64,000 bases of DNA, from contig CAWDRG010000009.1 of the NCBI GenBank assembly GCA_963804645.1, positions 480,001 through 544,000 of the forward strand, in the 5' to 3' direction. The position numbers and the translations under genes were made by a program. The notes beneath the pieces are model-generated. The model worked only from the letters and a program-made list of their open reading frames with translations, ran no database searches and had not been told where the DNA came from. Of the stretch, positions 2,362 to 31,472 are shown piece after piece. Within the stretch, counting starts at the first letter, position 1; each line of letters begins with the position of its first letter. This stretch comes from an uncultured Bacillota bacterium (GTDB taxonomy: Bacteria > Sysuimicrobiota > Sysuimicrobiia > Sysuimicrobiales > Segetimicrobiaceae).

Positions 2362-2390
2362 TTGCCAGCCTGACGGGCCTCTGCTAGAAT
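2362..2390 (+). promoter_or_regulatory. Sigma70 promoter of tRNA-Lys
   Basis: TTGCCA-17 bp-TAGAAT with extended TG, 7 nt upstream of the tRNA 5' end. Confidence 0.7.
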
Positions 2391-2397
2391 ACTGCTG

Positions 2398-2473
2398 GGG
2401 CCGTTAGCTCAGCGGGTAGAGCGCCGGGCTTTTAACCCGGGCGTCGGGGGTTCGATCCCCTCACGGCCCACCA
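2398..2473 (+). tRNA. tRNA-Lys (anticodon TTT), CCA encoded
   Basis: Full cloverleaf: GGGCCGT/ACGGCCC acceptor, GCTC/GAGC D-stem, CCGGG-CTTTTAA-CCCGG anticodon arm, TTCGATC T-loop, ACCA. Confidence 0.97.
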
Positions 2474-2501
2474 AATCAAGGTCCGCAAGGTCACTTTCAG
2501 G

Positions 2502-2520
2502 CTGCTAATCCACTGCTAAT
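2502..2520 (+). repeat. CTGCTAAT direct-repeat doublet (11-bp period), putative integrase arm sites of attL
   Basis: CTGCTAATccaCTGCTAAT about 29 bp downstream of the tRNA; resembles the TTGC(T/A)AAC doublets in the downstream att modules. Confidence 0.55.
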
Positions 2521-2784
2521 TCTTTGGGGATCATCCCCTTGGCGGGCGTCCGGCTTTGTGGTAGTGGAGCACTCCCGTGACCTGAGACCGTCTGCAGCGT
2601 CCCGCCAGACACACGACGTTGCCCTGGAGCCCCAACGCCGCGGCCGGTCTGGACGGTTGCGCCCCCTTTGCAACGCCCCGCAGACGGTGGCGGCACGGAC
2701 GCCGGGGCCTCCCACTACCTGCCGAACATGCGCGCCATGCCGTTTATGCGCGCCAAACGGTCAGCTGTCGTCTCCGTTCTGCGA

Positions 2785-3642
2785 TTAGGGAGAAGCATCC
2801 AATCCGTAGCGATCCAGCGCTGCTCGGATCTGGCTGAGCAACTCAGTGCCCAGTTGGCGCCCGTTCGGGAGTTGGTCGTCTCGATCCCAGCGCCACGTTG
2901 CGACCATCGCCAGCATGAGGACCCGGCACTCGCGAAGCAGGTCTTGATCAGCAGTTGAGATAGTGCTCGCCGACTTCTTCGGGGGCATGTGCGACGTCGA
3001 ATTCGACAGGTCCGCGGCAACACGTCTCGAGATCCACAAACAGCAGCCGTTTCTTCGTTCTGAGCAAGTTGCCCGGATGCGGCTCGCCATGGAGCAGCTG
3101 CTCGTGCGCGCCGCGATCGGCGATCGCGCGCCTCAACGCTTCGCAGCGTGTTGATGAGAAGGTCCCGGTCCGAGTCGGCAAGCTCCGGAGTCTGCGCGCG
3201 GTTGCCGACCAGCCGCTGCGCCTCCGCGACCCGATCCGTGAAGTGCGGCGCAGTCACATCGATCTGTCGCATGCCGGCATGCAGCTGCTCGAGCGCCTGC
3301 GCATAGTCGCGCGGCGCGACATCTCCTGGCGGCACAGGCTCGTAGTAGGTCCACAGCGTGACCACGAAGTCGTCACGCACGTAGACACGCGGCTCCACCC
3401 GAGGCTCAAGCTCGGCCACCGGGCTATCGGTTTCGGCAAGCCGTCGAGCGACCTCGACCTCGAACTCTGCGCCTGGCCTGATGCGCTACATGCGCGACCC
3501 GAGCAAGAACGTCACAAGGCAGCAGGCGCACCGCGAGCCGGTTCGAGTCCTGAAGAACAACCGCGTCATCGACCCTCAGGCCAAGCCCTGTGGCCGTGGA
3601 CATCCCTGCCGCCACCGCGCTTGGAATTTCTGATGCCTTCAT
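2785..3642 (-). pseudogene. Aminoglycoside phosphotransferase/kinase family pseudogene (about 3 frameshifts)
   Basis: Consecutive ORF pieces MKASEIP..SNRLAVRLLPCDVLARVA / VTLWTYYEP / LLHGEPHPGNLL..FVDLE / ..WRWDRDDQLPNG in different frames. Confidence 0.8.
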
Positions 3643-3877
3643 CGTCGCCTCGCTGTCATTGCCTCTCCGTCGCGTCGGCGCGCCGCCCGTATTCCTGCGC
3701 GCGCCACAGACATTCGAGCGTCCCACGCCAATCGTCCTCTGCCAGCGGAATCGCACGTTTTGCGGGGGGGGGGGCACAGGGGGCGGCGCTGGGGACCCGC
3801 TGGATCCGCCAGACTGGCTGATCGGTAGTTATCGGACAACCTGATCGGGTTGACCCCAGATTAGGTGATCGGTTTCA

Positions 3878-4486
3878 CTAGAATCCGCAGTCATACGCCA
3901 ACCGCGTGATCGCTTCCATCACGCGCGCGGTCAGCGCCGATTGCTCGTGTCTCGACGGCGCCTCCGGCGGGGCGATGGGCTCGCCAATGCGAACAGCGAT
4001 CCTCCCGCGGCGAGGCCAGGTCGTTCCCGACGGCCACACCTCATGTGTCCCCACGATCCCCACCGGGATGATCGCGGCATGGGCCCGGGCCGCCACGAAT
4101 GCCATGCCGTCTTGGGCGCGCTGAAGTCTTCCGTCGGCGCTGATATTGCCTTCCGGGAAGATTACAAGCGCCTCGCCGCGGTCGAGGCGTGCAAGGCAGT
4201 CCTCGATCGCGCGGCGGTCGAACCCTCCGCGTCTGATCGGCACGACGGGAAACAGGCGGATCAGCCTTCCGAGGACAGGCCTCGTGAGCAGTTCCGCCGC
4301 GGCGAGGAAGGTACAGCGGCGCGGCACAGCCGCCCCCAGCACCACCGCGTCGATGTCGCTTCTGTGGTTTGGGGCGAGGATGATCGGGCCTCTTCGGGGG
4401 ATGTGCCGCTCGCCCGTGACCGTCAGTCCGAACCCGAGTCTGAGAATCCTCCGGGAGAACCACCGGGCCGCTGCGTACCTGACCAT
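3878..4486 (-). CDS. 1-acyl-sn-glycerol-3-phosphate acyltransferase (PlsC/LPLAT family)
   Basis: NHRSDID (HX4D) and FPEG motifs; close paralog of 22443-23123. Confidence 0.9.
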   Translation of the reverse strand: MVRYAAARWFSRRILRLGFGLTVTGERHIPRRGPIILAPNHRSDIDAVVLGAAVPRRCTFLAAAELLTRPVLGRLIRLFPVVPIRRGGFDRRAIEDCLARLDRGEALVIFPEGNISADGRLQRAQDGMAFVAARAHAAIIPVGIVGTHEVWPSGTTWPRRGRIAVRIGEPIAPPEAPSRHEQSALTARVMEAITRLAYDCGF

Positions 4487-4625
4487 CACGCGCACGGGGG
4501 CGGTTTTGTTCGACGGCCTGCTATCAGACGTGGTGGAAGGCGAACGTGCAGGGCCGCATCGCAGCCGCGAGGGAAACGAAGCCGTGGCCCGGCTGCCTGG
4601 GTTTGGAAAGATCCCCTACCAGACG

Positions 4626-4862
4626 TTACAAGTCCGATGGTGCAATGGGGATCGGATCAGACCTGTGTCTTTGCCTAATTTCTTCAACTTTGCGCCTCTG
4701 GCCGAAATACGAAACGCTGGACAACAGCCCGCACAACACCGTAACTACTACTCCCAGCGCCAGGAACGTAACAACGGCACTGAAGTCCAGACTACTCATC
4801 AAAGCTATCAAAAAAGAGACTGCTGCACCAAGTCCAATTCCAAGAAATGTCAGAGTGATCAC
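4626..4862 (-). CDS. Small two-TM membrane protein, possibly a remnant
   Basis: Two hydrophobic stretches; low-GC; abuts att module 1; no clear RBS. Confidence 0.35.
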   Translation of the reverse strand: MITLTFLGIGLGAAVSFLIALMSSLDFSAVVTFLALGVVVTVLCGLLSSVSYFGQRRKVEEIRQRHRSDPIPIAPSDL

Positions 4863-4927
4863 CAGTTGATTTACGACCGTTGCGATTTGATACTGTTTTC
4901 GTTATGGATGGCGGCGATATTCAGCGG

Positions 4928-5110
4928 TTGCTAACGCTTTGCAAACGGACGGTGCGGAAAGGGATCGTACACGATGACACACAATAACACACCTCGCAGT
5001 GAGGACCCGCGCGGGACGACGCTCCCCGGTACAGGTTTGTACTGAGCGACAATTGGGGTGGTGAGCTTTTAACCCAGGCGTCGGGGGTTCGATCCCCTCA
5101 CGGCCCATCA
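4928..5110 (+). mobile_element. att-like module 1: arm repeats plus 46-bp tRNA-Lys 3' half (5065-5110)
   Basis: TTGCTAACgctTTGCAAAC, ACAC repeats, then GCTTTTAACCCAGGCGTCGGGGGTTCGATCCCCTCACGGCCCATCA (44/46 to the tRNA). Confidence 0.85.
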
Positions 5111-5288
5111 CATCAAGGGTTTTTTGCGCGCGGTGGCTTTCGCTTGCTGCTCTGTCGCTGTTCCCATCTCGAGGCAGGCGGATGCATTTTTGATGCCACG
5201 CGAGGGGGGCGTGCCCGAGAACCTGCGGTCTCGGTGGAAGAAAGGGCAAGCATCCCCGAACCTCAGCGGGTGAGGTAGGGTGATCGGA

Positions 5289-5672
5289 TCACAGGGTCCC
5301 GCTAAAATGTACTTCCCATGCTTTCGTGCAACCGATGGGTCCCCCTGTAGCATGTACGTCAAACCTGGCATTATTGTGGTCCTTTAGGGAAATCTGCTGC
5401 GAATTTCCGAGTGAACTTTTGTACCACACTAAGGTTTGCTCGGATACAAGAATGGGCTTTCCATAGATCTCCAACCACACGAAGCCGCCCCTGCGAATGC
5501 CCCAGGGTTGCCCGGAGTCATCGGTTGACCTTCGCACAAGAATACCAATGTCAGTCGGAGTCGTATTGAACACCAAGATGCATCCTTGTCGCGCCCCAGT
5601 TAGCGCCGCGCCCCTCCCGGCCACCGCTAAACACAGTCCCATCGCAAGCACCGCGATTGCCAGCCGCTTCAT
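5289..5672 (-). CDS. Secreted hypothetical protein
   Basis: Signal-peptide-like MKRLAIAVLAMGLCLAVAG; AAGGGG RBS. Confidence 0.6.
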   Translation of the reverse strand: MKRLAIAVLAMGLCLAVAGRGAALTGARQGCILVFNTTPTDIGILVRRSTDDSGQPWGIRRGGFVWLEIYGKPILVSEQTLVWYKSSLGNSQQISLKDHNNARFDVHATGGPIGCTKAWEVHFSGTL

Positions 5673-5922
5673 CGTCTTCCCCCTTGTCCCGTTCGGCCGA
5701 CGCTCCCATGCGGATCATTTGGTGGTTCGGCGGAAACCCGCTTCTCGCCTATACAGGGCACGGTGCGCATAAAGGAACTCCTTCTGCAACCCCTAAGATC
5801 GCGCACACGGTTTCCGGGCGCCGGGATCACCACCCTTTCGTGACAGGACACGCGAGACGGTACGTGAGGATCGTCTCTCGCCCCGCTCACCCCTATCCTG
5901 AGCCCGGTTGGGATTATCATTC

Positions 5923-6075
5923 TCACGACATGGGCATTGGCCGGTGGGAGAAACCAGCCAATCCCAACGCCAAGAGGAGGATTAGCGCCAGCAGTAGGAT
6001 CAGGACGTACCCGAGGCGATCCGCCCAAGCAAGCAACGGCTCCTGGTCGATGCGTGGCTTGTGCGTCTGTCGAAT
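5923..6075 (-). CDS. Putative 50-aa single-TM small protein with ATT start (or mutated ATG)
   Basis: GGAGGAGGGAG RBS, then ATT CGA CAG...; IRQTHKPRIDQEPLLAWADRLGYVLILLLALILLLALGLAGFSHRPMPMS*. Confidence 0.4.
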   Translation of the reverse strand: MRQTHKPRIDQEPLLAWADRLGYVLILLLALILLLALGLAGFSHRPMPMS

Positions 6076-6461
6076 TGTATCTCCCTCCTCCTGCCACGGC
6101 ACATTCTCCAGGCGTCCGAGTTTGGCGCTGGTGCCGTTGCGATACCAGATGAATCGCAGGGGCGATCCACGCGGGCGACCGTGCTTCTGACGATCACCCC
6201 GGCGCCGCGGCTGCGCAAGCGCTCGGCGAGCCGGTGTTCGCCCTCACCCTCCTCCGGGACCGCGCTCCCCGTTCGCTGCCGCTCGGGTCCGGCCTGCCGC
6301 GGCGAAACCCACAGCCGGCGTGCGAGGCAAATTACTCTGCAGACCGGATGGCCCTGGGAGGGGTCTTCCACTATGTTGGTGGAGGCGGCGCGGAATCGGA
6401 ACAACCCTGCGCACCTCGTGCGTCTCGGAATCCAAACGGTGGGGACGGGAGGAGACGGCAG

Positions 6462-7742
6462 ATGGCGGATCGGTCAGCGAAGGCGGCGGCGACGGCACCG
6501 CGTGCGGACCCCTGGCAGGCTGCGCGCCAGCAGTTCTCGGCCGCGGCTGACGTGCTTGAGCTGAAGCACGGGGTACGCGACCTGCTCCTGGAGCCCAAGC
6601 GGGAACTGACCGTGAACTTTCCCGTCGAATTCCAGGACGAATCCGTGCGCGTGTTCACGGGGTACCGCGTCCACCACAGCACCGTGCTGGGTCCCACCAA
6701 AGGCGGCATCCGCTACCATCCGGACGTGACCCTGGACGAGGTCCGGGCGCTCGCGATGTGGATGACGTGGAAGTGCGCCGTCGTGGGGCTGCCCTACGGC
6801 GGCGCAAAAGGCGGCGTCGTCTGTAACCCGAAGGAGCTCTCGCGGCGGGAGCTCGAGAGCCTCACGCGCCGCTACACGACCGAGATCATGCCGCTGATCG
6901 GGCCGGAGAGTGACATTCCGGCGCCCGACGTCGGCACGACCCCACAGGTGATGGCGTGGCTCATGGACACGTACAGCATGCACCGCGGCTACTCGGTCCC
7001 CGCGGTGGTGACCGGCAAACCGCTCGCGATCGGCGGCTCCGCCGGCCGGGTCGAGGCAACCGGACGCGGCGTGATGATCGCGGCCCGGGAAGCGGCGCGC
7101 CACCTCGGGATGCCGCTCGCCGGGGCGCGGGTCGTCGTGCAGGGGTACGGAAACGTCGGCAGCATCGCGGCGCAGCTCCTCGCCGAGCAGGGCTGCCGAA
7201 TCATCGCGGCCAGCGACAGCACCGGAGGCGTGTATAACGAGAAGGGCATCGACCCTAGCGCGCTGCTGCGGCACAAGGGGCGGACGGGCGGCGTCGTCAA
7301 TTACGGGGCGGCGGACGGGATCACCAACGACGACCTGCTCGAGCTGCCGTGCGAGCTCCTCGTCCCGAGCGCGCTCGAGGGTCAGATCGCGGCCGAGAAC
7401 GCGCCGCGGATCAAGACGCGCATGATCGTAGAGGGAGCGAACGGGCCGGTCACCCCGGAAGCGGACCGGATCCTCAACGCCGCCGGCGTCCTTGTCGTTC
7501 CGGATATCCTCGCCAACGCGGGCGGGGTCATCGTCTCCTACTTCGAGTGGGTCCAGGATCTCCAGTCGTTCTTCTGGTCCGAAGAGGAGATCAACAAACG
7601 GCTCGAGGGGATCATGGTGCGGAGCTTCCGCGAAGTGCTGGCGACCTCTCAGGAGAAGAGCGTGGAGATGCGGACAGGGGCGCTCGTCCGCGCGGTGGGA
7701 CGGGTGGCGGACGCCCTCCTGCTCCGCGGGATCTACCCGTAA
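6462..7742 (+). CDS. gdhA: Glu/Leu/Phe/Val dehydrogenase, glutamate dehydrogenase
   Basis: GPTKGGIRYHP, LPYGGAKGG, DIPAPDVGT, QGYGNVG, EGANGP, SYFEWVQ; GGAGG RBS. Confidence 0.93.
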   Translation: MADRSAKAAATAPRADPWQAARQQFSAAADVLELKHGVRDLLLEPKRELTVNFPVEFQDESVRVFTGYRVHHSTVLGPTKGGIRYHPDVTLDEVRALAMWMTWKCAVVGLPYGGAKGGVVCNPKELSRRELESLTRRYTTEIMPLIGPESDIPAPDVGTTPQVMAWLMDTYSMHRGYSVPAVVTGKPLAIGGSAGRVEATGRGVMIAAREAARHLGMPLAGARVVVQGYGNVGSIAAQLLAEQGCRIIAASDSTGGVYNEKGIDPSALLRHKGRTGGVVNYGAADGITNDDLLELPCELLVPSALEGQIAAENAPRIKTRMIVEGANGPVTPEADRILNAAGVLVVPDILANAGGVIVSYFEWVQDLQSFFWSEEEINKRLEGIMVRSFREVLATSQEKSVEMRTGALVRAVGRVADALLLRGIYP

Positions 7743-8319
7743 GCGCGGCGCACGCAGGTACCGCGATCGAGAGACCTCGGGGAAGGGTCCCACGACGCGT
7801 CCGCGCACGAATCGCACGCTCAGGCCGTCGAGGCGTTCCCGCTCGCCAGGCGTGTAGCAGGCTGCACTTCCGAGCGCACCCACGGCGAGCACCTGCACCG
7901 CTATGCCGCCGCCGTGCTGAATCCACCCCGGCTCGCTGTCCAAGCGCGACTGCACGGTTCGAATCGTACTATCGGACAGTAACTTTTGAGTTAAACATAA
8001 TCGATATTTGATACTGAACAACAAGAACGTAATCGAATAACGTTCGATGCTTTGCTCCAACGATCGCCTAGCAATAGCGCAGGCGCTGGGTGCACCGCTG
8101 GATAGGGAGCGTCTCGAGCAAAAGCGGGCTAAGCGGATTTCGGTTGCCGCGCCGTTTTCGGTGTCAATCGAGAGCCCACAGAATACCTTCAACGCTTGGA
8201 GGAGCGGGCGGTCGGCTGGATGGGTCGGTTCGTGGACGTGTTTCGAGCGAGAGTCGAAGCGCTCCCGTAGTCGCGGAATTGAGACCGCTGTGGTGTTGGT
8301 GCGGAGACGGGACCCTTTT

Positions 8320-8441
8320 TTGCTAACGCTTTGCAAACGGACGGTGCGGAACGGGATGGTACAGGGTGACGCAGCATGACACGGCGCGACGTCGGACCTA
8401 GCACAGGACGGCACGCGCAAGCGCAGGGTGACACTAGACGA
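8320..8441 (+). mobile_element. att-like module 2: arm only, tRNA core missing
   Basis: TTGCTAACGCTTTGCAAACGGACGGTGCGGAA nearly identical to module 1, colinear until about 8441. Confidence 0.8.
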
Positions 8442-8485
8442 GACGACGCAGGCGAGATAGCTAAGGGCAAAGGCGTGACGGTGAA

Positions 8486-8588
8486 GGGGTGGGTCAATTC
8501 TAGACAGGCGGCCGGTGATGCGCCGGTTCGGCGGGGTGGGTCAATTCGAAAGCGGCGGAGGTGGGTTACTTTCAATAAGGTGTTGGCA
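8486..8588 (+). mobile_element. IS21-family-like terminal repeat array (element end remnant)
   Basis: GGGGTGGGTCAATTC at 8486 and 8533, GGTGGGTTACTTTC at 8560, ending TGTTGGCA; multiple subterminal repeats ending in CA are typical of IS21. Confidence 0.6.
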
Positions 8589-8772
8589 ATAGCTCCGGCT
8601 TTCCATCGACGCTCGCGGTGAGGGTTGTATAGCCATCATTCAGCCTCCACCGTGTTCATCCAGGAATTTCAGGCAGATGCACGCCACACATTCGACAGCA
8701 GGTGCGGCGAATAGACCTGCGGAGGGCTTGGGTGGTCCTCGCAGGCGGGAAGGGTGTCGTGCCGAGGTCGCT

Positions 8773-10300
8773 TAGACAGGGAACAAGAGGAGTATCCCTT
8801 GCAGTCTACGAAGGGCATCTCCCAAATCTTTGTCCGATTGTATCAGGCCGTTGACATACTTAGATGCTGCCTCAGCAGCTTGTCTGTCGGTATAGTTAGT
8901 TGTCTCCCTGAGGGTCGTCACTATATCGATCTTCGCAGTAAGATAGCCAGTATGCCCTGTCGAATAAAATGCCGCGTAGATTCGGGCAAGAACAGAGAGA
9001 AGATCATCTATGATAAGCTTGACCTCGACATCGGTCTCATTCTTTTTGTTCTCTCGAGAAAAGCTTTCCAGGAAGGAAAATCACCTATGCTTAGTTGGCG
9101 CGCATAGAGATATTCGATTTGCTTGTACGTATCGTCTCGTTTGGCTTCGCCGTGGAAAGGGATGAAGAATCTGGAAATTCTCATCACGAAACGTTCGAAA
9201 ACGATTTTGAATTTCTTTAGCCGTTGCAAGAAGGCCTTCAAGTCGCACCTTCGCATCGCTTGTAGTTGGTTGCGCAAACGCTTTGACGTCGAAGGTTAAG
9301 ACGATCAGGTCTTTGGCCTCTTTCGAGAAGATTCACTTACTAGCTGTAAGACCGTGTCGCGACGCTATGACCGTCCATTTCTCTTGGTCTTTACGCAAGT
9401 CGATCCTAAAGAATACATCGTTGTCGGTTATTGTCGGTCGCAAGGCATTCCAGACAACGAATACGCTAGCTCCACTAGCAGGCTCTCCATTTGCGAAAAC
9501 CTTTCCAGCTGCGGTTATCATTTAGTGCCAGTTTCAGCGCCTCGTGTGAGAAGGTTCGTTGGTATAGCAGTAGCAATGGGCTACGTACGGATTGCCGCAA
9601 TGAGTGCAGCTGTGAGCGCCGAACTCGACACCCTAGGTAGAGTGCCGTATAAGGCTGTCCCAGCGGCACGAAGCCTACGATGACGAGGTAAAGCGCAGTT
9701 GGCTCCAGGATCCGAAGCTGGGCACGGACATTAGCAGAGAGATCGGGGATCTAAAGATTCCAAGATGGAGAGCTGAGAGAGAATGGGGCAGCCGCCGCTA
9801 TCAGACCAACCGTGAATAATATTGCAGTTACCTCTGTTGGGAAGCCAGAGAAGGGTGTATATGCTTTGCTTATCCACCGTCGACTCCGGCGACAGCGCCG
9901 CGGATATCATGCCGTGGTCTTTCCTATACCAGAGGGTCCTTCGATCACAAGCCCTCTGCCGGCGTGCGCAGCGCCACGAGTAGCGTATCGTATTCAGCCG
10001 GTTAAACAGAGGTGCAAGTCGGAACACCGATAGCGTGAAGACTCTTCTAGATTGGGTTTGGACACACGAGTTCCTCCCCAGACGAAGGTTTTGGCGAACT
10101 GTTCTGGGGTCTAGCCAGTCGATCCTTCCTAATCGAGCGATCTCATCAAGTTCCAAAGTGTGCCACGAGCATCACCGAGTCCACTATTAATAACTCAGCG
10201 CCTCCTGGTGGCGGCGATATAGTTGCTGAAGCATGGCTGGAGCTCGCTGTTCCGCCAGTCAACCATGCCCCCAAGAATGCGCCAAGCAGCGCCCATCATC
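8773..10300 (-). pseudogene. Low-GC decayed ORFs (secreted/membrane proteins of unknown function)
   Basis: Protein-like frames broken by stops and frameshifts (ITAAGKVFANGEPASGASVFVVW..., ...TDVEVKLIIDDLLSVLARIYAAFY...LLFPV*); visibly AT-richer than flanks. Confidence 0.45.
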
Positions 10301-10327
10301 GCACAGCCCGGGTCTCGAAGGCACCAC

Positions 10328-10924
10328 TCAGCGTGCGCGCACGACGATCCCGCTGCCCCGGACGAGCGTGCCGTGATAGAGAAACGCGATCTGCCGGAAC
10401 GTCGCGTGTTGGTCGAACTCCGTGAGCGCCGACACCGCGTCGACGGGCACGATCACGCGAAACCACCGGAGCGCCGCGCTCCCCGCCGTGTGGAGCACGC
10501 AGATGTTGCTCACGGTACCGACGATGATGAGCGTGTCGATCCGACGCCGGTGGAGTTCGTGTTCGAGCGGCGTCCCGTAAAATCCGTCGTAGCGCACCTT
10601 CCGCAGGACGAGGTCGCCCGCCCTGGGCGCGAGCTCAGGGACGATCTCGGCGCCCCACGTGCCCGCCTCGGCGTGCGGCCCCCACAGCGCCGCCTCGGGA
10701 TCGTCCGACTCGTGCCAGTCCTGCGTGTAGATGACCGGCATACCGGGGGCCCGCGCGGCGGCGAGGAGCCCCGCGATCACGGGGATGGTGTTCCCGGCGC
10801 CCGGCACGCAGAGGCGCCCTTCGGGATTGACGAAATCGTTCTGCATGTCCACGATCAACAGCGCCGTCGTCGCGGGGGCGACGTCGACGCGCGACTCGAC
10901 CGTGTACTCCGGAATCTGGATCAT
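10328..10924 (-). CDS. Isochorismatase/cysteine hydrolase family protein
   Basis: ALLIVDMQNDF, KVRYDGFYGTPL, GTVSNICVLHTA catalytic D-K-C triad motifs. Confidence 0.9.
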   Translation of the reverse strand: MIQIPEYTVESRVDVAPATTALLIVDMQNDFVNPEGRLCVPGAGNTIPVIAGLLAAARAPGMPVIYTQDWHESDDPEAALWGPHAEAGTWGAEIVPELAPRAGDLVLRKVRYDGFYGTPLEHELHRRRIDTLIIVGTVSNICVLHTAGSAALRWFRVIVPVDAVSALTEFDQHATFRQIAFLYHGTLVRGSGIVVRAR

Positions 10925-11345
10925 CGCGCTCCCCTTTCCCACCCAAGGATTCGTTGCGGCGAGTCGGATTCTGGAGAGCCCTGGGCTCCCTCGCGGAGAG
11001 TTGCATAGACTGTCTCTGCCGCCGGCTCGAGCCGTTGCCTTCCCGCCGCGAGCAGCGCCGCCTCGTTCGCCATCTTCATCAAATCCGCCGCTGAACCCTG
11101 GCGTCCGTCGCATCAGCGCGTCAGGTTCACGTCGTCGGCGATCGGCTCTCCAGTGCGTTGATGGACATCCGGCCAAAGGCAGCAGGGCGACAATCGGAGC
11201 TCGCAGCTCGGCTCGCCGTCCTGAAGATAGCAAGAATCCTCCGTGTTTGATGATCTCGACAGAGAATCTGGAGCAAGTTTCCAAACACATGATAGAGTAG
11301 GGTGGCGCAGTAACCAACGTGTCTACCCGATTGGGTCGCCAAGTC

Positions 11346-11534
11346 TTGCTAGCGCTGCGCGAAACGAACGGTGACGGAACAGGTTGGTGTCCGACGACGA
11401 GCACCGCGCGAACGTAACGAAGAGCCGAAGCCGACGGGGACGGCACGTGCGGGCGCAGCGTGATACGGGACGACAATATATGTTTGAAGCTCTTAACCCG
11501 GGCGTCGGGGGTTCGATCCCCCCACGGCCCGCCA
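11346..11534 (+). mobile_element. att-like module 3: degenerate arm plus tRNA-Lys(CTT)-type 3' half (11489-11534)
   Basis: TTGCTAGCGCT...GGGACGGCACG...CGACAAT, then GCTCTTAACCCGGGCGTCGGGGGTTCGATCCCCCCACGGCCCGCCA (43/46). Confidence 0.8.
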
Positions 11535-11598
11535 ATCACAAACTGCGTCCGGAGCGGCTTTGCGCTCTTCTCCACCCCCCCCGCCCGAAAGAGGGCGG

Positions 11599-11881
11599 AT
11601 GAGCCCATTTGTCGAACGCCATCATGAGCGTGCCGTGAAGGCCAGTGCGGTTCATCCTAACGCACATCTTCACATCTACGGGAGACTGGATGAAGCGGCT
11701 TTGGATAAGCCGTTGCGGGAATATGCAGTTCCCAACGCGGCGCATTCCTCTCGAAGCTGTCATTCTGTTGCTTGCTGACGAATTTGAGATTCCCTGCGCC
11801 ACGGAAGAGGTGGTTTGGCGTCCTGCATTGGCGGAGGCAGATCGACTGTTCCGAGAAATTGCCCATGATCCGCAGCCTTAG
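11599..11881 (+). pseudogene. Frameshifted fragment of a hypothetical protein
   Basis: HPNAHLHIYG in one frame continues as FPTRRIPLEAVILLLADEFEIP...W in another; directly after att module 3. Confidence 0.35.
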
Positions 11882-11991
11882 CCTACCGTGCGATAACTTA
11901 GAAGCCTGGATTTCCGTTTTATGACGGAGCGGAAACCGTGGAGATGCGTCGAACGCCTTGATCTGTGCGGGTTTGAGGGCGGTGGCGACAC

Positions 11992-12804
11992 ATGAGAGTC
12001 GTCGACAGCCACTGCCATGCCGCACTGGTTTGGTCCGAGCCCGTCGAGCTGTTGCTGCATCAGATGGACGCGAACAAGGTCGATCATGCGGTGTTGATCC
12101 AAATCAGCGGGATTACCGACAACCACTATCAGGATGACTGCGTGCGCCGCTTCCCCGGCCGCTTTGCCTCAGTGGTCGGCGTGGACGCAACGCGCTCCGA
12201 CGCATGCGACCAGCTACGGCGGCTGGCCGAACTGGGGGCGAGCGGGGTACGGCTCCGCGCCACGACTCGATCACCCGAGCCCGATCGGTGGGCGATCTGG
12301 CGGGCTGCGGCGGCTCTGGACCTCTCGGTCAGTTGCCTGGGGGCGCCGGGGGATTTCGTCGACGGGGAGTTCGTGCGCTTGGTGGAGGAGCGCTCAGATC
12401 TGCGTCTCGTGATCGAGCATCTCGGGGCGTCCAATCGTCCCGAGAACTACACGCTCGAGGAGCGGCGACGCGTCTTCGACCTCGCGCGCTTTCCGAACGT
12501 GTTTGTCAAGATTCATGGACTCGGGGAATTCTGCCCGCGACCTGTGCCGATGCGGGACCCTCCATTTCCGCCCACGATCCCGCCCCTGTTTGAGATGGCG
12601 TACGATGCGTTCGGGCCGGAGCGCATGATGTGGGGCAGCGACTTCCCGCCCGTCGCCGGCCGCGAAGGGTATCGCAACGCGCTCAAGTACGCGCTTGAGC
12701 GGTTCGCCTCCCGCAGCGAGCGCGATCGGGAGAGCATTTTCGGCGCGGTGGCGCTCCGGCTATTCCCGCTGCGGCCGGCTTCGCGGACGGGCACCGGCTC
12801 GTGA
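11992..12804 (+). CDS. Amidohydrolase_2 family (lactonase-like)
   Basis: VVDSHCH, IEHLG, FGPERMMWGSDFP. Confidence 0.88.
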   Translation: MRVVDSHCHAALVWSEPVELLLHQMDANKVDHAVLIQISGITDNHYQDDCVRRFPGRFASVVGVDATRSDACDQLRRLAELGASGVRLRATTRSPEPDRWAIWRAAAALDLSVSCLGAPGDFVDGEFVRLVEERSDLRLVIEHLGASNRPENYTLEERRRVFDLARFPNVFVKIHGLGEFCPRPVPMRDPPFPPTIPPLFEMAYDAFGPERMMWGSDFPPVAGREGYRNALKYALERFASRSERDRESIFGAVALRLFPLRPASRTGTGS

Positions 12805-12887
12805 CGCGGTGGGCCCCGGGACGTCGTGGCGTGTCGGTTGCCCAGGGCGGTACTCGGAGACAACCCCGGTCTAGATGCGAGGCGCGT

Positions 12888-13685
12888 CTAGCGCGTCAGG
12901 AACTCGGTGACCGGCACGAACGTGATCCCCGCGCGGCGGAACTCGGGCAGCATGCGCTGCACGACGTCGGGCGCGCCGGTCGAGATGTGGGCGCCTGCGA
13001 CCGCCCATCCCTGCCGCTCGGCAAGGGCGATGAGCCCGCGGACCTTGTCGGCGATGTGATCCGGCGGGATATCAAGGTACGTCGTGGTCGTCACGGTTGG
13101 CACGCCCAGACGGCGCGCCGTCTCGACATCGACCGACTCGGCCGTTTCCGGGTTTTCGAGGAACCACAGCCCGCGCGCCCTGAGGACTTCGAGGACGGCC
13201 GTCATGACGCGGCGATCGGCCGTCGCCAGCGACCCGGCATGATTGCTGACACCGACGACGCCGGGAACGCTGTCCAAGTCGCCCTCGACCACGCGCGCAA
13301 TCTCGGCGTCCGTCATCCGCACCCACACGGTGCCGGTCACCGGCCCGAGGTCCCCGGCGTGGACGGGCTCGAGCGGCAGGTGGAGGATCGGCGTCAGACC
13401 ATGCGCGGCAGCCGTGCGGGCGATCTCGGCCGAATCCCGCATGTGGGGAAAGATGCCGAGCCCGAACGGTTCGTGCATCGCGTAGATCGGCGCCAGCTCT
13501 GCGAGGCTCGCGCCAGCATGCTCGAAAACCAGCGCGACGCGGGGATGTTCGGTCCCGAACGCGTGCGGGGCCAGCAGCGCCAACCACACGCTGGCGATGA
13601 CTGCCGCGCGGCCCGCGGCGCGCGACAGAAGGCTTGGGCGGCGTCCCGCCACTCTCGTGCCGGTTCCTGAACACACGGCGCGCAT
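12888..13685 (-). CDS. Divergent polysaccharide deacetylase family (YibQ-like); start uncertain
   Basis: ILHLPLEP, GVSNHAGS, AVAGAH motifs; N-terminal hydrophobic segment. Confidence 0.8.
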   Translation of the reverse strand: MRAVCSGTGTRVAGRRPSLLSRAAGRAAVIASVWLALLAPHAFGTEHPRVALVFEHAGASLAELAPIYAMHEPFGLGIFPHMRDSAEIARTAAAHGLTPILHLPLEPVHAGDLGPVTGTVWVRMTDAEIARVVEGDLDSVPGVVGVSNHAGSLATADRRVMTAVLEVLRARGLWFLENPETAESVDVETARRLGVPTVTTTTYLDIPPDHIADKVRGLIALAERQGWAVAGAHISTGAPDVVQRMLPEFRRAGITFVPVTEFLTR

Positions 13686-13843
13686 GACCTGCACATTCCG
13701 TGTGCGCCATGCATGTTCCTCGGCGGCGGCCCGTACGCCGTCCGAATTAGTCGGAGGAGTTGAGGCGGCCGGGCCGTAGAGAAACCGGGGGCGCGCCACG
13801 GACGACGGGGCGCACCGCTGACTCGAGGAGAGAGGAGAACGGA

Positions 13844-15055
13844 GTGGGCGTCACAGCCAGGCCGTGGTGGTCGTGGATTCGCCGCGCGTCACGCCTCGTG
13901 ACCGCGATGGCGGTGCTCGTGTGCGCGCTGGGGTTGGGGGGCGCGGCCACCCGCGCCGCGAGCAGTCCGGGCACGGTGACGACGGTGCCGGGGATGCCGC
14001 CGGTCGTCGATCCGCGCAACATTTACAGCGAGACCGCTCCCGGGGACATCGCGCCCGAAGTTGCGAAGGATCTGCCGCGCGTGTACGTGCCAAACCTCCG
14101 ATCCAACGACGTCTACGTGATCGATCCGTCCACGTTCAAGGTGATCGACCGCTTCCCGGTGGGGGTCGAACCGCAGCACGTCGTCCCATCCTGGGACCTG
14201 CGCACGCTCTGGGTGACCAACAATGCGGAGGGCCTGCCCAACGGGAGCCTCACGCCGATCAACCCGCGCACCGGGAAGCCCGGTCCGGAGATCCCCGCGG
14301 ATGATCCCTACAACATGTATTTCACCCCGGACGGGGAGTACGCGATCGTCGTCGCGGAGGCGCGGAGGCGGCTGGACTTCCGCGACCCGCACACTATGGC
14401 CCTTCACGACTCCCTCAAGGTGCCGGGCTGCGACGGCATCAACCACGCCGACTACTCCATCGACGGGCGGTATGCGATCTTCACCTGCGAGTTTGGCCCG
14501 GGCCGCATCGCGAAGATCGATACCGTGCACCGCAGGATCCTGGGCTATCTGAGCCTCGGCTCGCACGACATGCCGCAGGACGTGCGCGCCGGGCCTGACG
14601 GGCGCACCTTCTTCGTGGCCGACATGCTGGCGGACGGGGTGTGGGTCATCGACGGCGACGCCTTCAAGAAGATCGGTTTTATCCCGACCGGCGTCGGCGC
14701 GCACGGCCTGTATCCGAGCCGCGACGCGACGAAGCTCTACGTCGCCGACCGCGGGTCGCACCTGATCCACGGCCCGCGCAACAGCCCGTACGGAAACGTG
14801 GCCGTGGTCGATTTCGCGACCCGCAAGGTCGTCGCGCGCTGGTCGGTTCCGGGCGGGGGCAGCCCGGACATGGGCAACGTCAGCGCCGACGGCCGCATCC
14901 TCTGGCTCTCCGGCCGGTTCGACGACGTCGCGTACGCCTTCGACACCACGACCGGAAAAGTCCGCAAGATCCCGGTCGGGCAGGAGCCGCACGGGATCGC
15001 GGTGTGGCCCCAGCCGGGGCGCTACTGCCTGGGCCACACGGGCATCATGCGCTGA
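13844..15055 (+). CDS. Secreted YVTN/YncE-type beta-propeller protein
   Basis: VYVPN, LWVTNN, LYVADRG repeats; IPVGQEPHG; signal peptide; GAGGAG RBS. Confidence 0.85.
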   Translation: MGVTARPWWSWIRRASRLVTAMAVLVCALGLGGAATRAASSPGTVTTVPGMPPVVDPRNIYSETAPGDIAPEVAKDLPRVYVPNLRSNDVYVIDPSTFKVIDRFPVGVEPQHVVPSWDLRTLWVTNNAEGLPNGSLTPINPRTGKPGPEIPADDPYNMYFTPDGEYAIVVAEARRRLDFRDPHTMALHDSLKVPGCDGINHADYSIDGRYAIFTCEFGPGRIAKIDTVHRRILGYLSLGSHDMPQDVRAGPDGRTFFVADMLADGVWVIDGDAFKKIGFIPTGVGAHGLYPSRDATKLYVADRGSHLIHGPRNSPYGNVAVVDFATRKVVARWSVPGGGSPDMGNVSADGRILWLSGRFDDVAYAFDTTTGKVRKIPVGQEPHGIAVWPQPGRYCLGHTGIMR

Positions 15056-15217
15056 CGCCTTCGTGACCGACCGGACGGCCGCCTCACGCGGCGGCGACAT
15101 CAGGGAGGGATGGACGTCAGCGTCATGCCGGGAGCGGCGAGACCGCCCGGAGGAATTCCCAGACGGAGCGCGTAGGTTACCGTGCGGAATTCGCACGCCC
15201 CGCTGGGAGGGACAGGC

Positions 15218-16819
15218 ATGGGGACTCCGTTCGGACGTGCACGGACATCGGTGGCTCTGGCGCTCGTCGCCGCGATGGTCGTCCTGGGCGTTGTCGTGGT
15301 GCCGGGCTCGATCACGGGATGGGCTGCGGGCCCGACGACCTTCGTCTGGGGGAAGTCCGGCGACGCGGACACGCTGGACAACAACGTCAGCTCAAACGGC
15401 GAAACCTCGGAGGTCACGACCCAGATCTTCAACCTGCTGGTTCGGGCGAAACCCGGCCGGACCGACATCGAGCCCGACCTGGCGACGAGCTGGTCGGTCT
15501 CGTCGGACGGCTTGATCTGGACGTTCCAGCTTCGCCACGGGGTAACGTTCCAGGACGGCACGCCATGGAACGCCGCGGCCGCAAAGTTCAACTTCGACCG
15601 CTGGTCCGACACGAACAACCCCTATCATGCCGTCAAGGGCACCGACTACTATTATTGGGACGACTTCATGGCCGCCACCTTCCAGGAGTCCAGGGTCGCC
15701 GGTCCCTACACCTTCCAGGTCATCCTCAAGAAGCCCAACGCACCGCTCCTCTACAATCTCTCGATCATCGCGTTCGAGTTCAATAGCCCGGCGTCCGTGC
15801 AGAAGTACGGCGGCGCCGGGGTCGGCCTGCACCCAGTGGGCACGGGCCCGTACAAGTTCGTCGAGTGGGTGCGGGACGACCACGTGACGCTAGACGCGAA
15901 TCCAGCGTTCTTCCGCAAGGGCCTGCCGAAGACACAGCGTGTGATCATGCGGGTCATCAAGGACAACTCGGCGCGGTTCCTCGCCCTTAAGTCAGGCGAG
16001 ATCCAGGCGATGGAGGCCCCCAACCCCGACGACGTCAAAGTCGCGCTGAACGACCCAAACCTGAAGGAGACCTTCCGGCCGGCGTTCAACATCGGCCTGC
16101 TGCGGTTCAACCTGAACTACGCCCTTTTCAAGGACAAGCGCATCCGCCAAGCGATGGTGTACGCGCTCAACCGCAAAGCGATCGTCGACGCGCTGTACGG
16201 CGGTTATGGCCACGTCGCCGAGCAGCACATGCCGCCACTGATGTGGGGACGCGTCTCGAACCCGCCGCAGTACGTGTACGACCCCGCCAAGGCAAAGCAG
16301 CTGATGGCCGAAGCCCAGTACCCAAACGGGTTCTCGTTCGACTTCTGGTACATCCCGGTCAGCCGGCCGTACTTCCCGAACGGCAAAGACATCGCGACCG
16401 CCGTCGCGAGCGACTGGGCCCAGGTCGGGATCCGCGCACACCTGCAGACCGAGGACTGGGCGACCTACCTCAAGGACGAGCTGACCAACCGCTTCCCGAT
16501 GTTCATGGGCGGATGGATTGGCGACAACGGCGATCCTGACGATTGGCTCGGGCACTTCTATCGGGCCTACGACCCCAACAACGCGTACCTCTCGTACAAC
16601 AACCCGGCCGTCGTGGACCTCGTGACGAAGGCCAAGGTGGTCACCGACCAGAATCAGCGGGCGCAGATGTACGCGCAGGCCGAGACGATGGTCCTCAACG
16701 ACATCCGGGACATCCCGCTGGCGCACGCCAGCGTCCCGCTCCTGCTGTGGAAGAACGTGCAGGGGCTGATCGGCCAGCCGGATGCGAACGAGTACATGGA
16801 ACTGGTCTGGCTGCAGTAG
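15218..16819 (+). CDS. ABC transporter peptide-binding protein (family 5, DppA-like), orphan
   Basis: IEPDLATSW, LRHGVTFQDGT, PVGTGPYKF, RPYFPNG; no permease genes adjacent. Confidence 0.92.
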   Translation: MGTPFGRARTSVALALVAAMVVLGVVVVPGSITGWAAGPTTFVWGKSGDADTLDNNVSSNGETSEVTTQIFNLLVRAKPGRTDIEPDLATSWSVSSDGLIWTFQLRHGVTFQDGTPWNAAAAKFNFDRWSDTNNPYHAVKGTDYYYWDDFMAATFQESRVAGPYTFQVILKKPNAPLLYNLSIIAFEFNSPASVQKYGGAGVGLHPVGTGPYKFVEWVRDDHVTLDANPAFFRKGLPKTQRVIMRVIKDNSARFLALKSGEIQAMEAPNPDDVKVALNDPNLKETFRPAFNIGLLRFNLNYALFKDKRIRQAMVYALNRKAIVDALYGGYGHVAEQHMPPLMWGRVSNPPQYVYDPAKAKQLMAEAQYPNGFSFDFWYIPVSRPYFPNGKDIATAVASDWAQVGIRAHLQTEDWATYLKDELTNRFPMFMGGWIGDNGDPDDWLGHFYRAYDPNNAYLSYNNPAVVDLVTKAKVVTDQNQRAQMYAQAETMVLNDIRDIPLAHASVPLLLWKNVQGLIGQPDANEYMELVWLQ

Positions 16820-16886
16820 CGGGCGGCACCGCGCTTTGCGCGGATCGTTCAAAGAAACACCCTGTTAGTCGCCCCACTTGGGATGC

Positions 16887-17701
16887 TTAGGACAGCCGGA
16901 GCGCCTTCGCGGGATCGATCTTCTCGAAGTCTTGTGCGAACGACACGAGGTAGTCGATCACGGCGGCCAATCGTTTTTTGCGCCCCGCTCCTTGAGCGCG
17001 GCGAGGGACGCCCAGTCTACCTCGGGCGCGCTCTCGAGGTCGACGTCCCAGCAGTCGACTGGAATGTGCACCTGTGCGCCTCGATACTCGAAAGCGCTGA
17101 ACCCGAGCGGTGTGATCGCGTCGCCGAATAGGTGCCGCAGCGGCGGGTTCACGCCCCACTCGCCCTTGAACACCCCTGGCCGCAGGTCGATCGTTTCCTC
17201 GCCCCCGACGGCCAGCGCGATGGCCAGGTCCCAGATGTGGGGGCCCTCTGGAAACGCGTCGGGGGACGTCACGTGGCGGACCTTCCACCACTCCACGATG
17301 GCAAGCAGCATCCCCAGCTCGCGCACGTTGCGGCCGGTCCGGATGAGCACCTCACGGTTGCCGCCGTGGCCGTTCAGGAAGATCACCTTGCGGATGCCGT
17401 TCTGATGGAGGCTCCGGCAGATGTCGGTGTACACCGCCTCGACGGTCTCCCGGTGGATGGTGATCGTTCCCGGATAGTGATCCATCTTGTCGTTCTCGCC
17501 GTACGGCAGCGCGGGCAGGGTGACGAGCCCCGTCCGCCTCCCGACCTGGTCGGCGATCCACGCGGTCGAGGTGGTGTCGAACCCGAGCGGGGTCGGACCG
17601 TGCGAATGCATCGTCCCCACGCCGATGAGCGCGGTGTCGGACCGCGCAAACGCCTCCTCCGCCTCCTTCCAAGACATTTCCTCCAGCCGGTGTTTGGTCA
17701 C
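16887..17701 (-). CDS. Creatininase family protein with a frameshift near the C-terminus
   Basis: LEEMSWKE, HGPTPLGFD, NGHGGN; C-terminal helix RLAAVIDYLVSF is out of frame after an A6 run at 16974-16979. Confidence 0.8.
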
Positions 17702-17907
17702 CCTGCCACCTCCGTTGTTCGGCCTTCCACCAACCCACTCGCAACCCAGTGCAACCCACTTGCTCCTACGCCCCAACGGCCGCGCCCTCCTTGAAACGAC
17801 GGTCAGAGTTTGCCGGCCAGACGCGGGACGAACATGGCGCGAAACCTCACTGAACAGGTGGGAGGTCGAACACCGGCACTGTGTCTTCTCAAAGCAAGTC
17901 CCACCGG

Positions 17908-18090
17908 TTGCAAACGCCTTGCAAACGAACGGCGCGGAACGGGATAGTACACATCGACACGGCATGACACAAGGTGAAGTCAGAACCCGCACGGGACGGT
18001 ACGCGCAGGCGCAGTTCGACGCTGGGCGACAATCGATGTGCCGAGCTTTTAGCCCGGGCGTCGGGGGTTCGATTCCCTCACGGCCCACCA
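17908..18090 (+). mobile_element. att-like module 4: arm repeats plus 46-bp tRNA-Lys 3' half (18045-18090)
   Basis: TTGCAAACgccTTGCAAAC, GACAC repeats, then GCTTTTAGCCCGGGCGTCGGGGGTTCGATTCCCTCACGGCCCACCA (44/46); ungapped alignment to module 1. Confidence 0.87.
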
Positions 18091-18525
18091 AAGTGGAAAG
18101 GGGGCGCGTCCCGAGCAAGCTTGGCGCCGTCCGACCACGCGGATGCCACCGCCGGAGGACGAACTGCGACCCCGTGCGCACCAGCGGCCTCAATCGTGCG
18201 ATCTGGTATGAGCAATGACGAGCGCACCACGCCACGGGAGGGCCTCCGCCGCAACGATTGTCAACCAAGCACAGTGGTGTGCTCGTCAGGCTCATACCAG
18301 ATCGGAGGCTATCTCTTCTCGCGCAGGTCGCGGGCGAACGACCGATGCGCTTCTGGGTGTCATTTTCGGGCTCGACCTTGATACGTCCGGGAAGGTCAAC
18401 GTTGGCGCTTCGATCTCGCGGCCTCAGCCTCCGTGCGCGTAACCGTCACCACGGGGGAGGTGGCGGCGAGCCCAAGACGGAATCCAATCGGGCTAGCCAG
18501 ATCAGTTGAGTCGGGAGGCGAGATC

Positions 18526-31369: not shown

Positions 31370-31472
31370 CGGGACGATCCACCGCTAATCCTTTGGCTAT
31401 TGTCCCATCGAGGGACGTAGGCCGACGCGCATCGTGGTTCCCTCCTAGCAGCGATATCGGTACAATATGTGT

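Follow-up and report, generated by a model that had tools for sequence, protein, structure and literature searches.

Genomic islands at tRNA genes are textbook knowledge but their growth by small pieces that carry no integrase is poorly resolved. The question of how such growth proceeds is raised, with unusually clean anatomy, by a locus from an uncultured bacterium of peat or soil, in which an intact tRNA-Lys(TTT) gene is followed by a series of gene blocks that are divided from one another by modules resembling phage attachment (att) sites. The locus lies in a stretch of 64,000 nucleotides (hereafter the window), i.e., positions 480001–544000 of the 1.4-Mb contig C9 of G000, a 5.3-Mb metagenome-assembled genome (MAG) of 22 contigs. 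The results presented below indicate that this array probably arose by tandem accretion, through repeated site-specific integration at the one tRNA-Lys gene, of units that resemble cis-mobilizable elements (CIMEs).

Anatomy of the tRNA-Lys array

The intact tRNA-Lys(TTT) (Table 1) was the only tRNA gene that ARAGORN detected in the window. The 45-nt 3' half of this gene, taken from the anticodon loop, was found with no more than three mismatches at four places, namely the gene itself and positions 5066–5110, 11490–11534 and 18046–18090, all in the same orientation; no such matches are expected by chance (100 shuffles). The three displaced halves, referred to here as cores, carry two, three and two mismatches to the tRNA, respectively (93–96% identity), and the tRNA cores differ mutually at 2–5 of 45 bases. 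Four arms of approximately 140 bp, which start at 4928, 8320, 11346 and 17908 and define modules m1 to m4, could be aligned nearly without gaps. Arm-arm identity was 70–79% over most of the length and reached 87% between m1 and m2 across the first 63 bp.

Thus, the ARAGORN prediction, the core search and the arm alignment bear out a preliminary description of the window, in which four modules of the same orientation had been placed at these positions after an intact tRNA-Lys. The TTGC(T/A)AAC doublet with an 11-bp period that had been reported to open each module was confirmed, as TTGC(T/A)AACG, in m1, m2 and m4 and is degenerate in m3, and the reported ACAC boxes are present. Likewise, the hand count of 91 identities over 130 ungapped positions of m1 and m4 proved exact (random 130-mers from the window agreed at a mean of 36 and a maximum of 59 positions in 20000 pairs), as did the counts of 44/46 for the 46-nt cores of m1 and m4 against the tRNA; the corresponding count for m3 is 43/46. 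The statement that modules 1, 3 and 4 end in CGACAAT followed by a tRNA half held for the box, which is present in all three, but not for its placement directly before the half, since 11–12 nt lie between CGACAAT and the tRNA-identical part. Identity to the tRNA starts at the anticodon loop in all copies, the module copies beginning there exactly, and the arm sequence was not found upstream of the intact tRNA-Lys. Judged by this boundary, crossover would have taken place at the anticodon loop, within the core. The relic of a fifth module, m3b, was recognized from its match to ...CAGGGCGGTACTCGGAGACGACCCGGG of the complete m3b in two metagenome contigs, L054 and L062.

Genes in the array lie on both strands and have no common promoter. 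Searches of 55 open reading frames (ORFs) against Pfam returned metabolic families only; these confirmed the cargo named in the preliminary description (acyltransferase, GdhA, isochorismatase family, Amidohydro_2, SBP_bac_5 and creatininase family) and added a Polysacc_deac_2 protein and a YncE-like propeller. Homology of the gdhA ORF (6234–7742) begins only near residue 91–99, block 4b is truncated at its left end and the SBP_bac_5 gene is without transporter partners.

Table 1. Features of the tRNA-Lys array and of the sequence to its right (window coordinates)
Feature	Position	Strand	Evidence
tRNA-Lys(TTT), intact; predicted attL core of the array and serial integration target	2398..2473	+	ARAGORN; Rfam tRNA 69.3 bits
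P'-arm doublet TGCTAATCCACTGCTAAT, 11-bp period, 30 bp past the tRNA end	2503..2520	+	doublet pattern scan
Block 1: APH-family kinase pseudogene (2772-3652, -), acyltransferase (3878-4495, -)	2474..4927		Pfam
Module m1: P arm 4928-5065, core 5066-5110	4928..5110	+	nhmmer module profile, E 3e-57
Block 2: ORFan left part with lower G+C; gdhA ORF 6234-7742 (+)	5111..8319		Pfam, NCBIfam
Module m2: P arm alone, spacer and core gone in G000	8320..8441	+	strain comparison
Block 3: ORFan region of 50% G+C; isochorismatase-family hydrolase (~10328-10900, -)	8442..11345		Pfam, NCBIfam
Module m3: arm with degenerate doublet, core 11490-11534	11346..11534	+	
Block 4a: single-gene cassette, Amidohydro_2 11992-12804 (+)	11535..12843		Pfam
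m3b: relic of fifth module, ~28 bp from the right end of the arm remaining	12844..12872	+	match to L054, L062
Block 4b: Polysacc_deac_2 (-), YncE-like propeller (+), orphan SBP_bac_5 (+), creatininase-family gene (-)	12873..17907		Pfam
Module m4: P arm 17908-18045, core 18046-18090	17908..18090	+	
P'-arm-like relic	31376..31417	+	local alignment to 2507-2548

The att module and its integrase family

An alignment of 14 modules, drawn from the window, from G012 (a genome of the same family but another genus) and from eight metagenome contigs, is nearly free of indels, with a mean column identity of 71% and with invariant columns that cluster in the doublet; the P-arm doublet starts 137–138 bp ahead of the tRNA-identical core. 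When G000 was scanned with an nhmmer profile of these modules, as had been proposed in the preliminary description, strong matches were limited to the four modules and the tRNA-Lys gene, the next match (E 8e-4) being a tRNA-Ala fragment, and the arm was found only at this locus in a blastn search of its own genome. The doublet pattern, TGC[AT]AA[CT]-N3-5-TGC[AT]AA[CT], occurs four times in the 5.3-Mb genome, each time in the array (2503, 4929, 8321 and 17909), and occurred 0, 2, 0, 0 and 0 times in five shuffles. Doublets stand in direct orientation on both the P and the P' arms, those of P' arms being noted 30–70 bp past the tRNA end in the window (2503) and in G012, G049, G001, L051, L053, L054 and L057. 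The TTGCWAACG doublet is probably an arm-type integrase site, the doublet at 2503–2520 is likely to be the arm-type integrase site of the newest cassette, and the run of ACAC boxes possibly provides sites for an excision factor.

An integrase that is linked to this module was found in G012, where an island of 32 kb lies downstream of tRNA-Lys at the syntenic site, which is marked by a short-chain dehydrogenase/reductase (SDR) gene ahead of the tRNA. This island closes at its far end with a module composed of TTGCTAACGTCTTGCAAACG, ACAC-type boxes, TGAGCGACAAT and a core, with 138 bp from the doublet to GGTTCGA, as in the window. The integrase of this island (376 aa) matched Phage_integrase (92 bits) and SAM_3 (36 bits) above the respective cut-offs and Arm-DNA-bind_4 at 21.8 bits, just below the cut-off of 22.3 bits, and is 33–39% identical over its full length to integrases of Bacillus and Paenibacillus phages, i.e., an ordinary phage-type enzyme. 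A small ORF downstream of this integrase gene is a candidate for an excision factor. The viral contig L038 encodes a full-length integrase that shares 39% identity and a strongly conserved N-terminus with that of G012, and its stop codon is 5 bp away from a doublet, which in turn lies approximately 70 bp after tRNA-Ser. Doublets also adjoin C-terminal integrase fragments in L033, in contig C27 of G002 (a genome of the same genus as G000) and in G014, and the distance from doublet to integrase gene end in other contigs is 4 to 62 bp. The seven doublet-linked integrase matches comprise two full-length genes (G012 and L038) and five C-terminal fragments, with the fragment in G002 as one more, a series that fits erosion of elements from within.

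These findings answer the call for an integrase with the same arm repeats elsewhere, and the earlier proposal that a single integrase family has these modules as its att sites gains support from the spacing kept across 14 modules of several organisms and from the identical type of module used by integrase-bearing G012. On the basis of these comparisons, the module family is assigned to phage-type tyrosine integrases with a predicted N-terminal arm-binding region, which would bind the arm sites.

The same build was noted at other tRNA genes. In the species-genome collection, the pattern of a doublet, 128–148 nt and GGTTCGA was found at three loci, all in actinobacterial MAGs; in each of them, the arm is followed by a 3' half of tRNA-Thr or tRNA-Tyr, with the intact gene 1.2–2.2 kb upstream. 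The same pattern was found in 16 metagenome contigs, eight of which have cores that match the tRNA-Lys of this lineage and eight of which have halves of other tRNAs or of more distant tRNA-Lys, as judged by reading of the loops. The doublet was present in 7 of 94 genomes of the host's order and the reversed control pattern in none. In viral contigs, the 27-nt core of tRNA-Lys gave no match and the doublet scan gave nine loci. L038 alone among these proved informative; L034, L040 and L042 are one sequence around the doublet, and several of the remaining loci have A+T-rich contexts and are apparently unrelated. The integrase-bearing relative, the doublets beside integrase genes and the same build at other tRNAs together identify the modules as attR-type junctions, each made up of a P arm and a displaced tRNA half.

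A further element of approximately 29 kb in G002 (C27:3330–32640; L064 and L065) has a TTGCAAACG doublet beside the C-terminal integrase fragment at one end and, at the other end, a triple TGCAAACGGAT repeat approximately 170 bp before a ...GGTTCAAG...CCACCA end that resembles the 3' end of a transfer-messenger RNA or tRNA. A site similar to that in G002 was noted in contig C22 of G017.

Within the array itself, the preliminary description had reported no integrase fragment, and this was borne out. Thus, none of the 11 matches to PF00589 in the genome falls on the contig that holds the window, the best tblastn match of the G012 integrase to the window had an E of 0.78, and a hidden Markov model (HMM) of seven family integrases, run with filters off on all frames of 1–34000, gave a best E of 1.4. 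None of 51 ORFs from ORFan stretches matched PHROGs, and no recombination or transfer gene was found inside the blocks with PF00589, the integrase HMM, PHROGs or Pfam. The closest integrase relic in the genome, a C-terminal fragment of 155 aa with 43% identity, lies beside tRNA-Pro on C11 with no doublet nearby.

Strain variation and decay

Differences between strains were evident from five metagenome contigs (L062, L063, L054, L051 and L049) that match the window at 97–100% in shared parts and from Logan contigs of four runs (X1, X2, X3 and X6) placed on 1500–19500. L062 agrees with the window at 142 of 142 positions over 8300–8441, continues with GACAATTATGTTTGCAAG and a core and then follows window 11535–12843; it is therefore without 8442–11486, i.e., block 3 and the m3 arm. 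The core and block 4a of L062 agree with the window at 1333 of 1358 positions, an 11-bp indel included. The spacer of L062, which stands between GACAAT and the core, differs by two indels from that of m3 while the flanks are approximately 99% identical, and the joint therefore sits between the spacer and block 4a, i.e., in the core. L062 is the product expected from core-to-core recombination, whether by insertion or by excision of block 3, and a contig of run X6 has an identical joint. Depth over block 3 was 0 in all four runs for bin 8712–9312 and 0 in three of four runs for bin 9313–9913 (0.44 in X3); the uncovered parts (4505–5706 and 8712–9913) are by themselves no evidence.

Other contigs differ from the window in their cassettes or modules. 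In both L062 and L054, the amidohydrolase gene of block 4a is followed by a complete module, and joints of this complete fifth module (m3b) were found in all four runs. L054 has, in addition, a 1-kb cassette foreign to the window and then a module, a core and a P' doublet, beyond which lie homologues of window 31452–32096 (83%), 20814–21094 (97%) and 32470–32995 (97%). In L051, block 4b extends another 583 bp to the left and follows a module, core and P' doublet; the module has an intact doublet and m3 as its closest relative (82% identity). In L063, the tRNA and the next 14 bp are the same as in the window and are followed by a different cassette of 1.27 kb and a module. L049 is collinear with 16313–19529, from which it diverges by 0.6–0.9% within genes, at 1/138 positions of the m4 arm and at 2/45 of the core. 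The strain comparison of cargo that had been proposed as a check thus revealed differing cassette content among near-identical strains. Since cassette sets differ between contigs that are 97–100% identical, the array has turned over recently, and the blocks behave as units.

Two candidates were rejected in the course of this comparison. A joint that appeared to go back from 12843 to 8320, as a circle would, represents the complete fifth module of other strains aligned on the m2 arm. The GGTTGC at 12838–12843 was discarded as the start of a deleted doublet, since 145 bp of different sequence separate 12843 from the module in L054.

At position 18052, in the anticodon loop of the m4 core, the tRNA has A, m4 of the window G and the 99%-identical L049 C, i.e., two different changes at one loop position in close strains, and the core differs at 2/45 compared with approximately 0.7% in the flanks. 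Logan contigs also join 7760 to 11629 (X1, X2 and X6) and a tRNA-like 47 nt to 6255 (X1 and X3), with unknown letters between, and end at 7761 and 12843. The joins 7760/11629 and 2473/6255 and the ends at 7761 point to further strain variants. Upstream of the tRNA, synteny extends to the citrate synthase and SDR genes in G002 and G003 and to the SDR gene in G012; downstream of tRNA-Lys, nothing is shared with these three relatives and no empty site could be defined from them.

In G000, the array is probably inert and is decaying by deletion and point mutation. Deletions have broken two modules that close strains keep, namely m2, now without spacer and core, and the fifth module, of which little is left. 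The m3 doublet is degenerate (it is intact in the nearest relative, L051), and bases of the anticodon loop, which is likely to be the overlap region, are substituted in the cores of m3 and m4; neither a cognate integrase nor a further doublet was found in the assembly. For this genome, these results contradict the earlier view of the modules as a maintained site family. Module spacing is conserved because of function when inserted, and upkeep in place is not demonstrated by it. The two alternatives of the preliminary description, i.e., cassettes mobilized in trans by one integrase family or a pile-up of decayed islands, are not exclusive, the array being one that was recently remodelled and is now decaying in G000.

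Decay was also noted in cargo. The APH-family segment of block 1 is in four pieces in three frames; an intact gene at C9:6645–7513 matches it with 86.5% identity over 881 bp. This gene lies outside the window in L043 (C9:6376–7591), where it is the only gene of a 1.1-kb insert that is enclosed by tRNA-Arg(CCT) and a copy of its 3' half, with the order tRNA-Arg(CCT), 12 bp, intact APH-family kinase gene (281 aa), arm of approximately 210 bp and tRNA 3' half; further half copies of tRNA-Arg(CCT) were noted at C9:5494 and C9:1430. Since the APH gene is intact in L043 but broken and inverted in block 1, one cargo gene is present in two arrays with different att sites.

According to blastn of all ARAGORN tRNAs, 15 tRNA genes in G000 have downstream copies of their 3' parts on the same strand, among them tRNA-Thr(TGT), with five copies, Arg(CCT), Ala(TGC), Met, Ile and Ser(CGA), the last with two copies. 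None of the 37 other tRNA fragments of G000 has the doublet, and fragments of one tRNA at different places have mostly unlike arms. In the largest array, at tRNA-Thr(TGT) (C6:87595), the five copies lie within 12 kb, and C6, like C9, has no PF00589 match. In contig C12 of G023 (L029; reverse-strand 3209–4204), tRNA-Lys is followed by three tandem units of approximately 272–427 bp that end in the last 33 nt or so of the tRNA and have identical upstream sequence, a short-period repeat unlike cassette arrays. Paralogues with 57–80% protein identity exist elsewhere in the genome for almost all of the cargo genes in the Lys array (for gdhA, 79% on C1 and 66% on C19), which fits import from related bacteria.

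To the right of the array, segment 31376–31417 is identical to the P' arm (2507–2548) at 31 of 42 positions, and its local score of 20 exceeds those of 698 control chunks, which reached 15 at most. No P arm or core was found at approximately 31.3 kb with the nhmmer module profile. Because of this P'-like similarity, the array possibly once extended to approximately 31.4 kb, and the relic may mark its real right end. An F420-type oxidoreductase gene (TIGR03619, above cut-off) lies directly after m4 and hints at an F420-using lineage. Positions 22443–28157 hold a lipid-remodelling cluster that consists of an acyltransferase, an AMP-binding enzyme like acyl-acyl carrier protein synthetase, a major facilitator superfamily protein, an alpha/beta hydrolase and a second acyltransferase. 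The first of these (22443–23123) has 64% protein identity to the acyltransferase of block 1, and L054 passes from the array to the cupredoxin region with this whole stretch left out. Repeats include a 107-bp unit with GGGTGGGTCAATTC at 8465–8571, which is 80% identical to C15:177739–177848 beside the tRNA-Met array, a unit of approximately 400 bp at 19482–19907, which matches several copies on C20:6390–7324, and an inverted pair (19802–19918 and 22331–22448, 72.5% identical) that brackets 19.8–22.4 kb.

Origin of the array and relation to known systems

In the explanation considered probable here, phage-type tyrosine integrases of a single family, which bind core and arm sites, would have served all of the integrating elements. 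Each integration would have involved a crossover in the anticodon loop, by which the tRNA was rebuilt from the copy of the element and the older 3' half was pushed downstream. With an older half displaced at every integration, each block would end in an attR-type junction, the parts of which would be a P arm of approximately 140 bp with two TTGCWAACG sites, ACAC boxes and a CGACAAT box, and the displaced tRNA half. The blocks would now be CIME-like units of 1 to 5 kb, movable only with a related integrase from outside, for which a newly integrating element of the same family is a possible source. The recent core-to-core remodelling in the population would have needed an integrase in trans or, less likely, homologous recombination between 45-bp cores, and G000 would represent a strain with no helper, in which the sites erode.

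Several observations weigh against this explanation. Canonical tandem integration predicts P' doublets at internal junctions, and none is clear in the window, where a degenerate one follows m1 only. All of the blocks, at least five, are without an integrase, whether lost or never present, which is poorly explained by simple decay, and, with no cognate integrase found in the assembly, a present ability of the sites to recombine in G000 is without support. Three of five strain breakpoints (8441, 12843 and 12872) lie away from cores, and no core-to-core circle or excised junction was found in contigs of the four runs, which, being assembled, cannot reveal rare forms. The block 3 polymorphism could also, though less likely, reflect RecA-dependent recombination between the 45-bp cores and not the action of an integrase. 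Finally, the m1 junction has almost no independent cover in Logan contigs, and some risk of strain chimeras joined at cores attaches to G000 as a MAG.

An unlikely but serious alternative is an active and selected capture platform, in which cassettes that never had an integrase would circulate as circles of minimal units (cargo and att site) and be served by a shared integrase in trans, as integron cassettes are by IntI. The small size of the cassettes, some of them single-gene, would agree with this alternative (1.3 kb for block 4a, 1.2–1.6 kb for the inserts of L054, L062 and L063, and 1.2–2.2 kb for those at tRNA-Thr and tRNA-Tyr in actinobacterial MAGs), as would the finding of integrase fragments in none of five blocks, the P' doublets that mark several cassette left ends, the different cassette sets of strains that are 97–100% identical and the 15 tRNA genes of G000 with downstream 3'-half copies, most of these arrays being without an integrase. 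The sites, however, are not intact here, with two modules deleted, one doublet degenerate and loop substitutions in m3 and m4, and the m4 core is more divergent from L049 than are its flanks (2/45 as opposed to approximately 0.7%). The assembly is also without a source of integrase, the integrases beside the doublet grade from full length to C-terminal fragments, as decay predicts, the pseudogene and the orphan binding protein resemble pieces of larger units, and the genes occupy both strands without a common promoter.

Assembly offers another account, by which the order of the array would be in part a chimera of co-occurring strains joined at near-identical cores. This is very unlikely, given that independent contigs reproduce the m4 junction (L049, 3.2 kb collinear), the m2 arm and the m3 core through block 4a, and that cores which differ at 2–5 of 45 bases have few long assembly words in common, although the genome is a MAG of 22 contigs, strain variants coexist in like metagenomes, with contigs that end at 7761 and 12843, and the m1 region is nearly without independent cover. 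Less probable still, and close to refuted, is an origin in which a module flanking the tRNA underwent segmental duplication and unequal homologous recombination, with host DNA interleaved. Genomic paralogues of nearly all cargo genes (57–80% protein identity) and several strain breakpoints outside cores would be in keeping with duplication, but the intact tRNA has no arm upstream, the copies start exactly at the anticodon loop and the same arm occurs ahead of the halves of other tRNAs in other phyla and beside integrase genes; moreover, arms that are 70–79% alike, as opposed to cores that are 93–96% identical to the tRNA, fit separate arrivals. Least credible is a role of the 140-bp arm as a structured RNA or regulatory region, for, while its sequence and spacing are conserved, Rfam matches in 1–22000 at E up to 1 fell only on the tRNA gene and none in the arm, four arm sequences folded no better than shuffles on either strand (z 0.72, -0.05, 1.10 and -0.08) and a fused tRNA half always accompanies the arm.

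Tandem accretion of CIME-like elements at tRNA-Lys can be compared with several known systems. CIMEs and tandem accretion were defined for ICESt1 and ICESt3 of Streptococcus thermophilus at fda. Like CIMEs, the blocks described here have att sites of one family of integrative elements at their borders, as the modules equal attR of the G012 island, have no recombination or transfer genes of their own, stand in tandem at a target gene and would require the integrase of a related element. Unlike the fda system, the target here is a tRNA gene, the host is an uncultured soil or peat bacterium, the blocks number at least five, some of them single-gene, there is no resident helper, and mobilization is a prediction. 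The locus qualifies as a tandem-accretion array of CIME-like elements, i.e., a known kind of island growth seen in unusual detail.

The order of parts in the module recalls the P arm of phage lambda, which presents arm sites, a second set of short repeats and then the core. As in attP of lambda, L5 and Cluster K phages, putative arm-type direct repeats stand on both sides of the core; in contrast with those sites, the same arm motif is combined here with different tRNA cores (Lys, Thr, Tyr, Ser and others) across phyla. For Cluster K mycobacteriophages, one report describes paired 11-bp arm-type sites that flank an attP core overlapping a tRNA gene and are bound by the N-terminal domain of the integrase, and also the reverse case of the same core with different arm sequences (PMC3203893).

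Integrons resemble the array in that small cassettes, each with its own recombination site, are added and removed by a tyrosine recombinase that the cassettes do not encode. In contrast with integrons, however, the array has no intI, attI or Pc, its predicted sites are double-stranded arm-plus-core sites and not attC hairpins, its genes lie on both strands and its anchor is a tRNA gene, which stands in place of an integron head on a 1.4-Mb contig without a tyrosine recombinase. The term integron-like, as used in the preliminary description, therefore does not apply in the strict sense, there being no adjacent integrase or attI, no attC-type hairpin and no single coding strand. Islands at ssrA in Dehalococcoides reportedly also occur in tandem, separated by direct repeats of the 3' end of the gene, and are said to carry their own integrases. 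By this account they differ from the present array in target gene, host and possession of integrases; their specificity for ssrA has been described (PMC3146451).

In tycheposon islands of Prochlorococcus, tyrosine-integrase elements insert at tRNA genes, newer elements push older ones inward with a partial tRNA between, and degenerate remnants and extra partial tRNAs are scattered (bioRxiv 10.1101/2020.12.28.424599). The partial tRNA copies left between tandem elements are a feature in common with the array, whereas the hallmark deep-branching recombinase and replication module of tycheposons are absent from the window and the linked integrase is of ordinary phage type. Conserved arm modules on integrase-less cassettes were not found described in the portion of that report at hand (bioRxiv 10.1101/2020.12.28.424599). 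The array is thus neither an integron nor a tycheposon, because the defining features of both were sought and not found. In the additive flexible islands of Alteromonas, a tRNA is the target for cassettes, length varies with cassette presence and a repeat of the tRNA 3' end marks the end (PMC4119200). Those islands differ in measuring tens of kb with large cassettes, and att-arm anatomy was not found described in the part of that source at hand, whereas here the unit, the att architecture and a candidate integrase family are defined.

What appears new is a matter of detail, i.e., the 190-bp module, a probable arm-site code shared across tRNA cores and phyla and cassette differences at the level of strains, none of which was found in a limited search of partly accessible literature. 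Together, the module, the candidate integrase family, the arm-site code and the strain variants provide a testable model for mobilization in trans. The occurrence of one arm motif with different tRNA cores and in different phyla bears on how integrases may change target without a change in arm recognition. A broader proposal, put forward tentatively and regarded as rather improbable at present, is that a widespread and undescribed gene-capture system is involved, in which integrase-less cassettes (cargo with a complete arm-and-core att site) would circulate among co-occurring strains and be inserted in trans at tRNA genes by a shared integrase, with one arm code (TTGCWAACG) and a core retargeted to many tRNAs across phyla. 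If true, such a system would correspond in function to the integron, with a tRNA gene as its anchor, and would be a general mechanism by which additive genomic islands form. Should the cassettes themselves prove to be mobile units, this would help to explain how soil bacteria gather paralogous metabolic genes.

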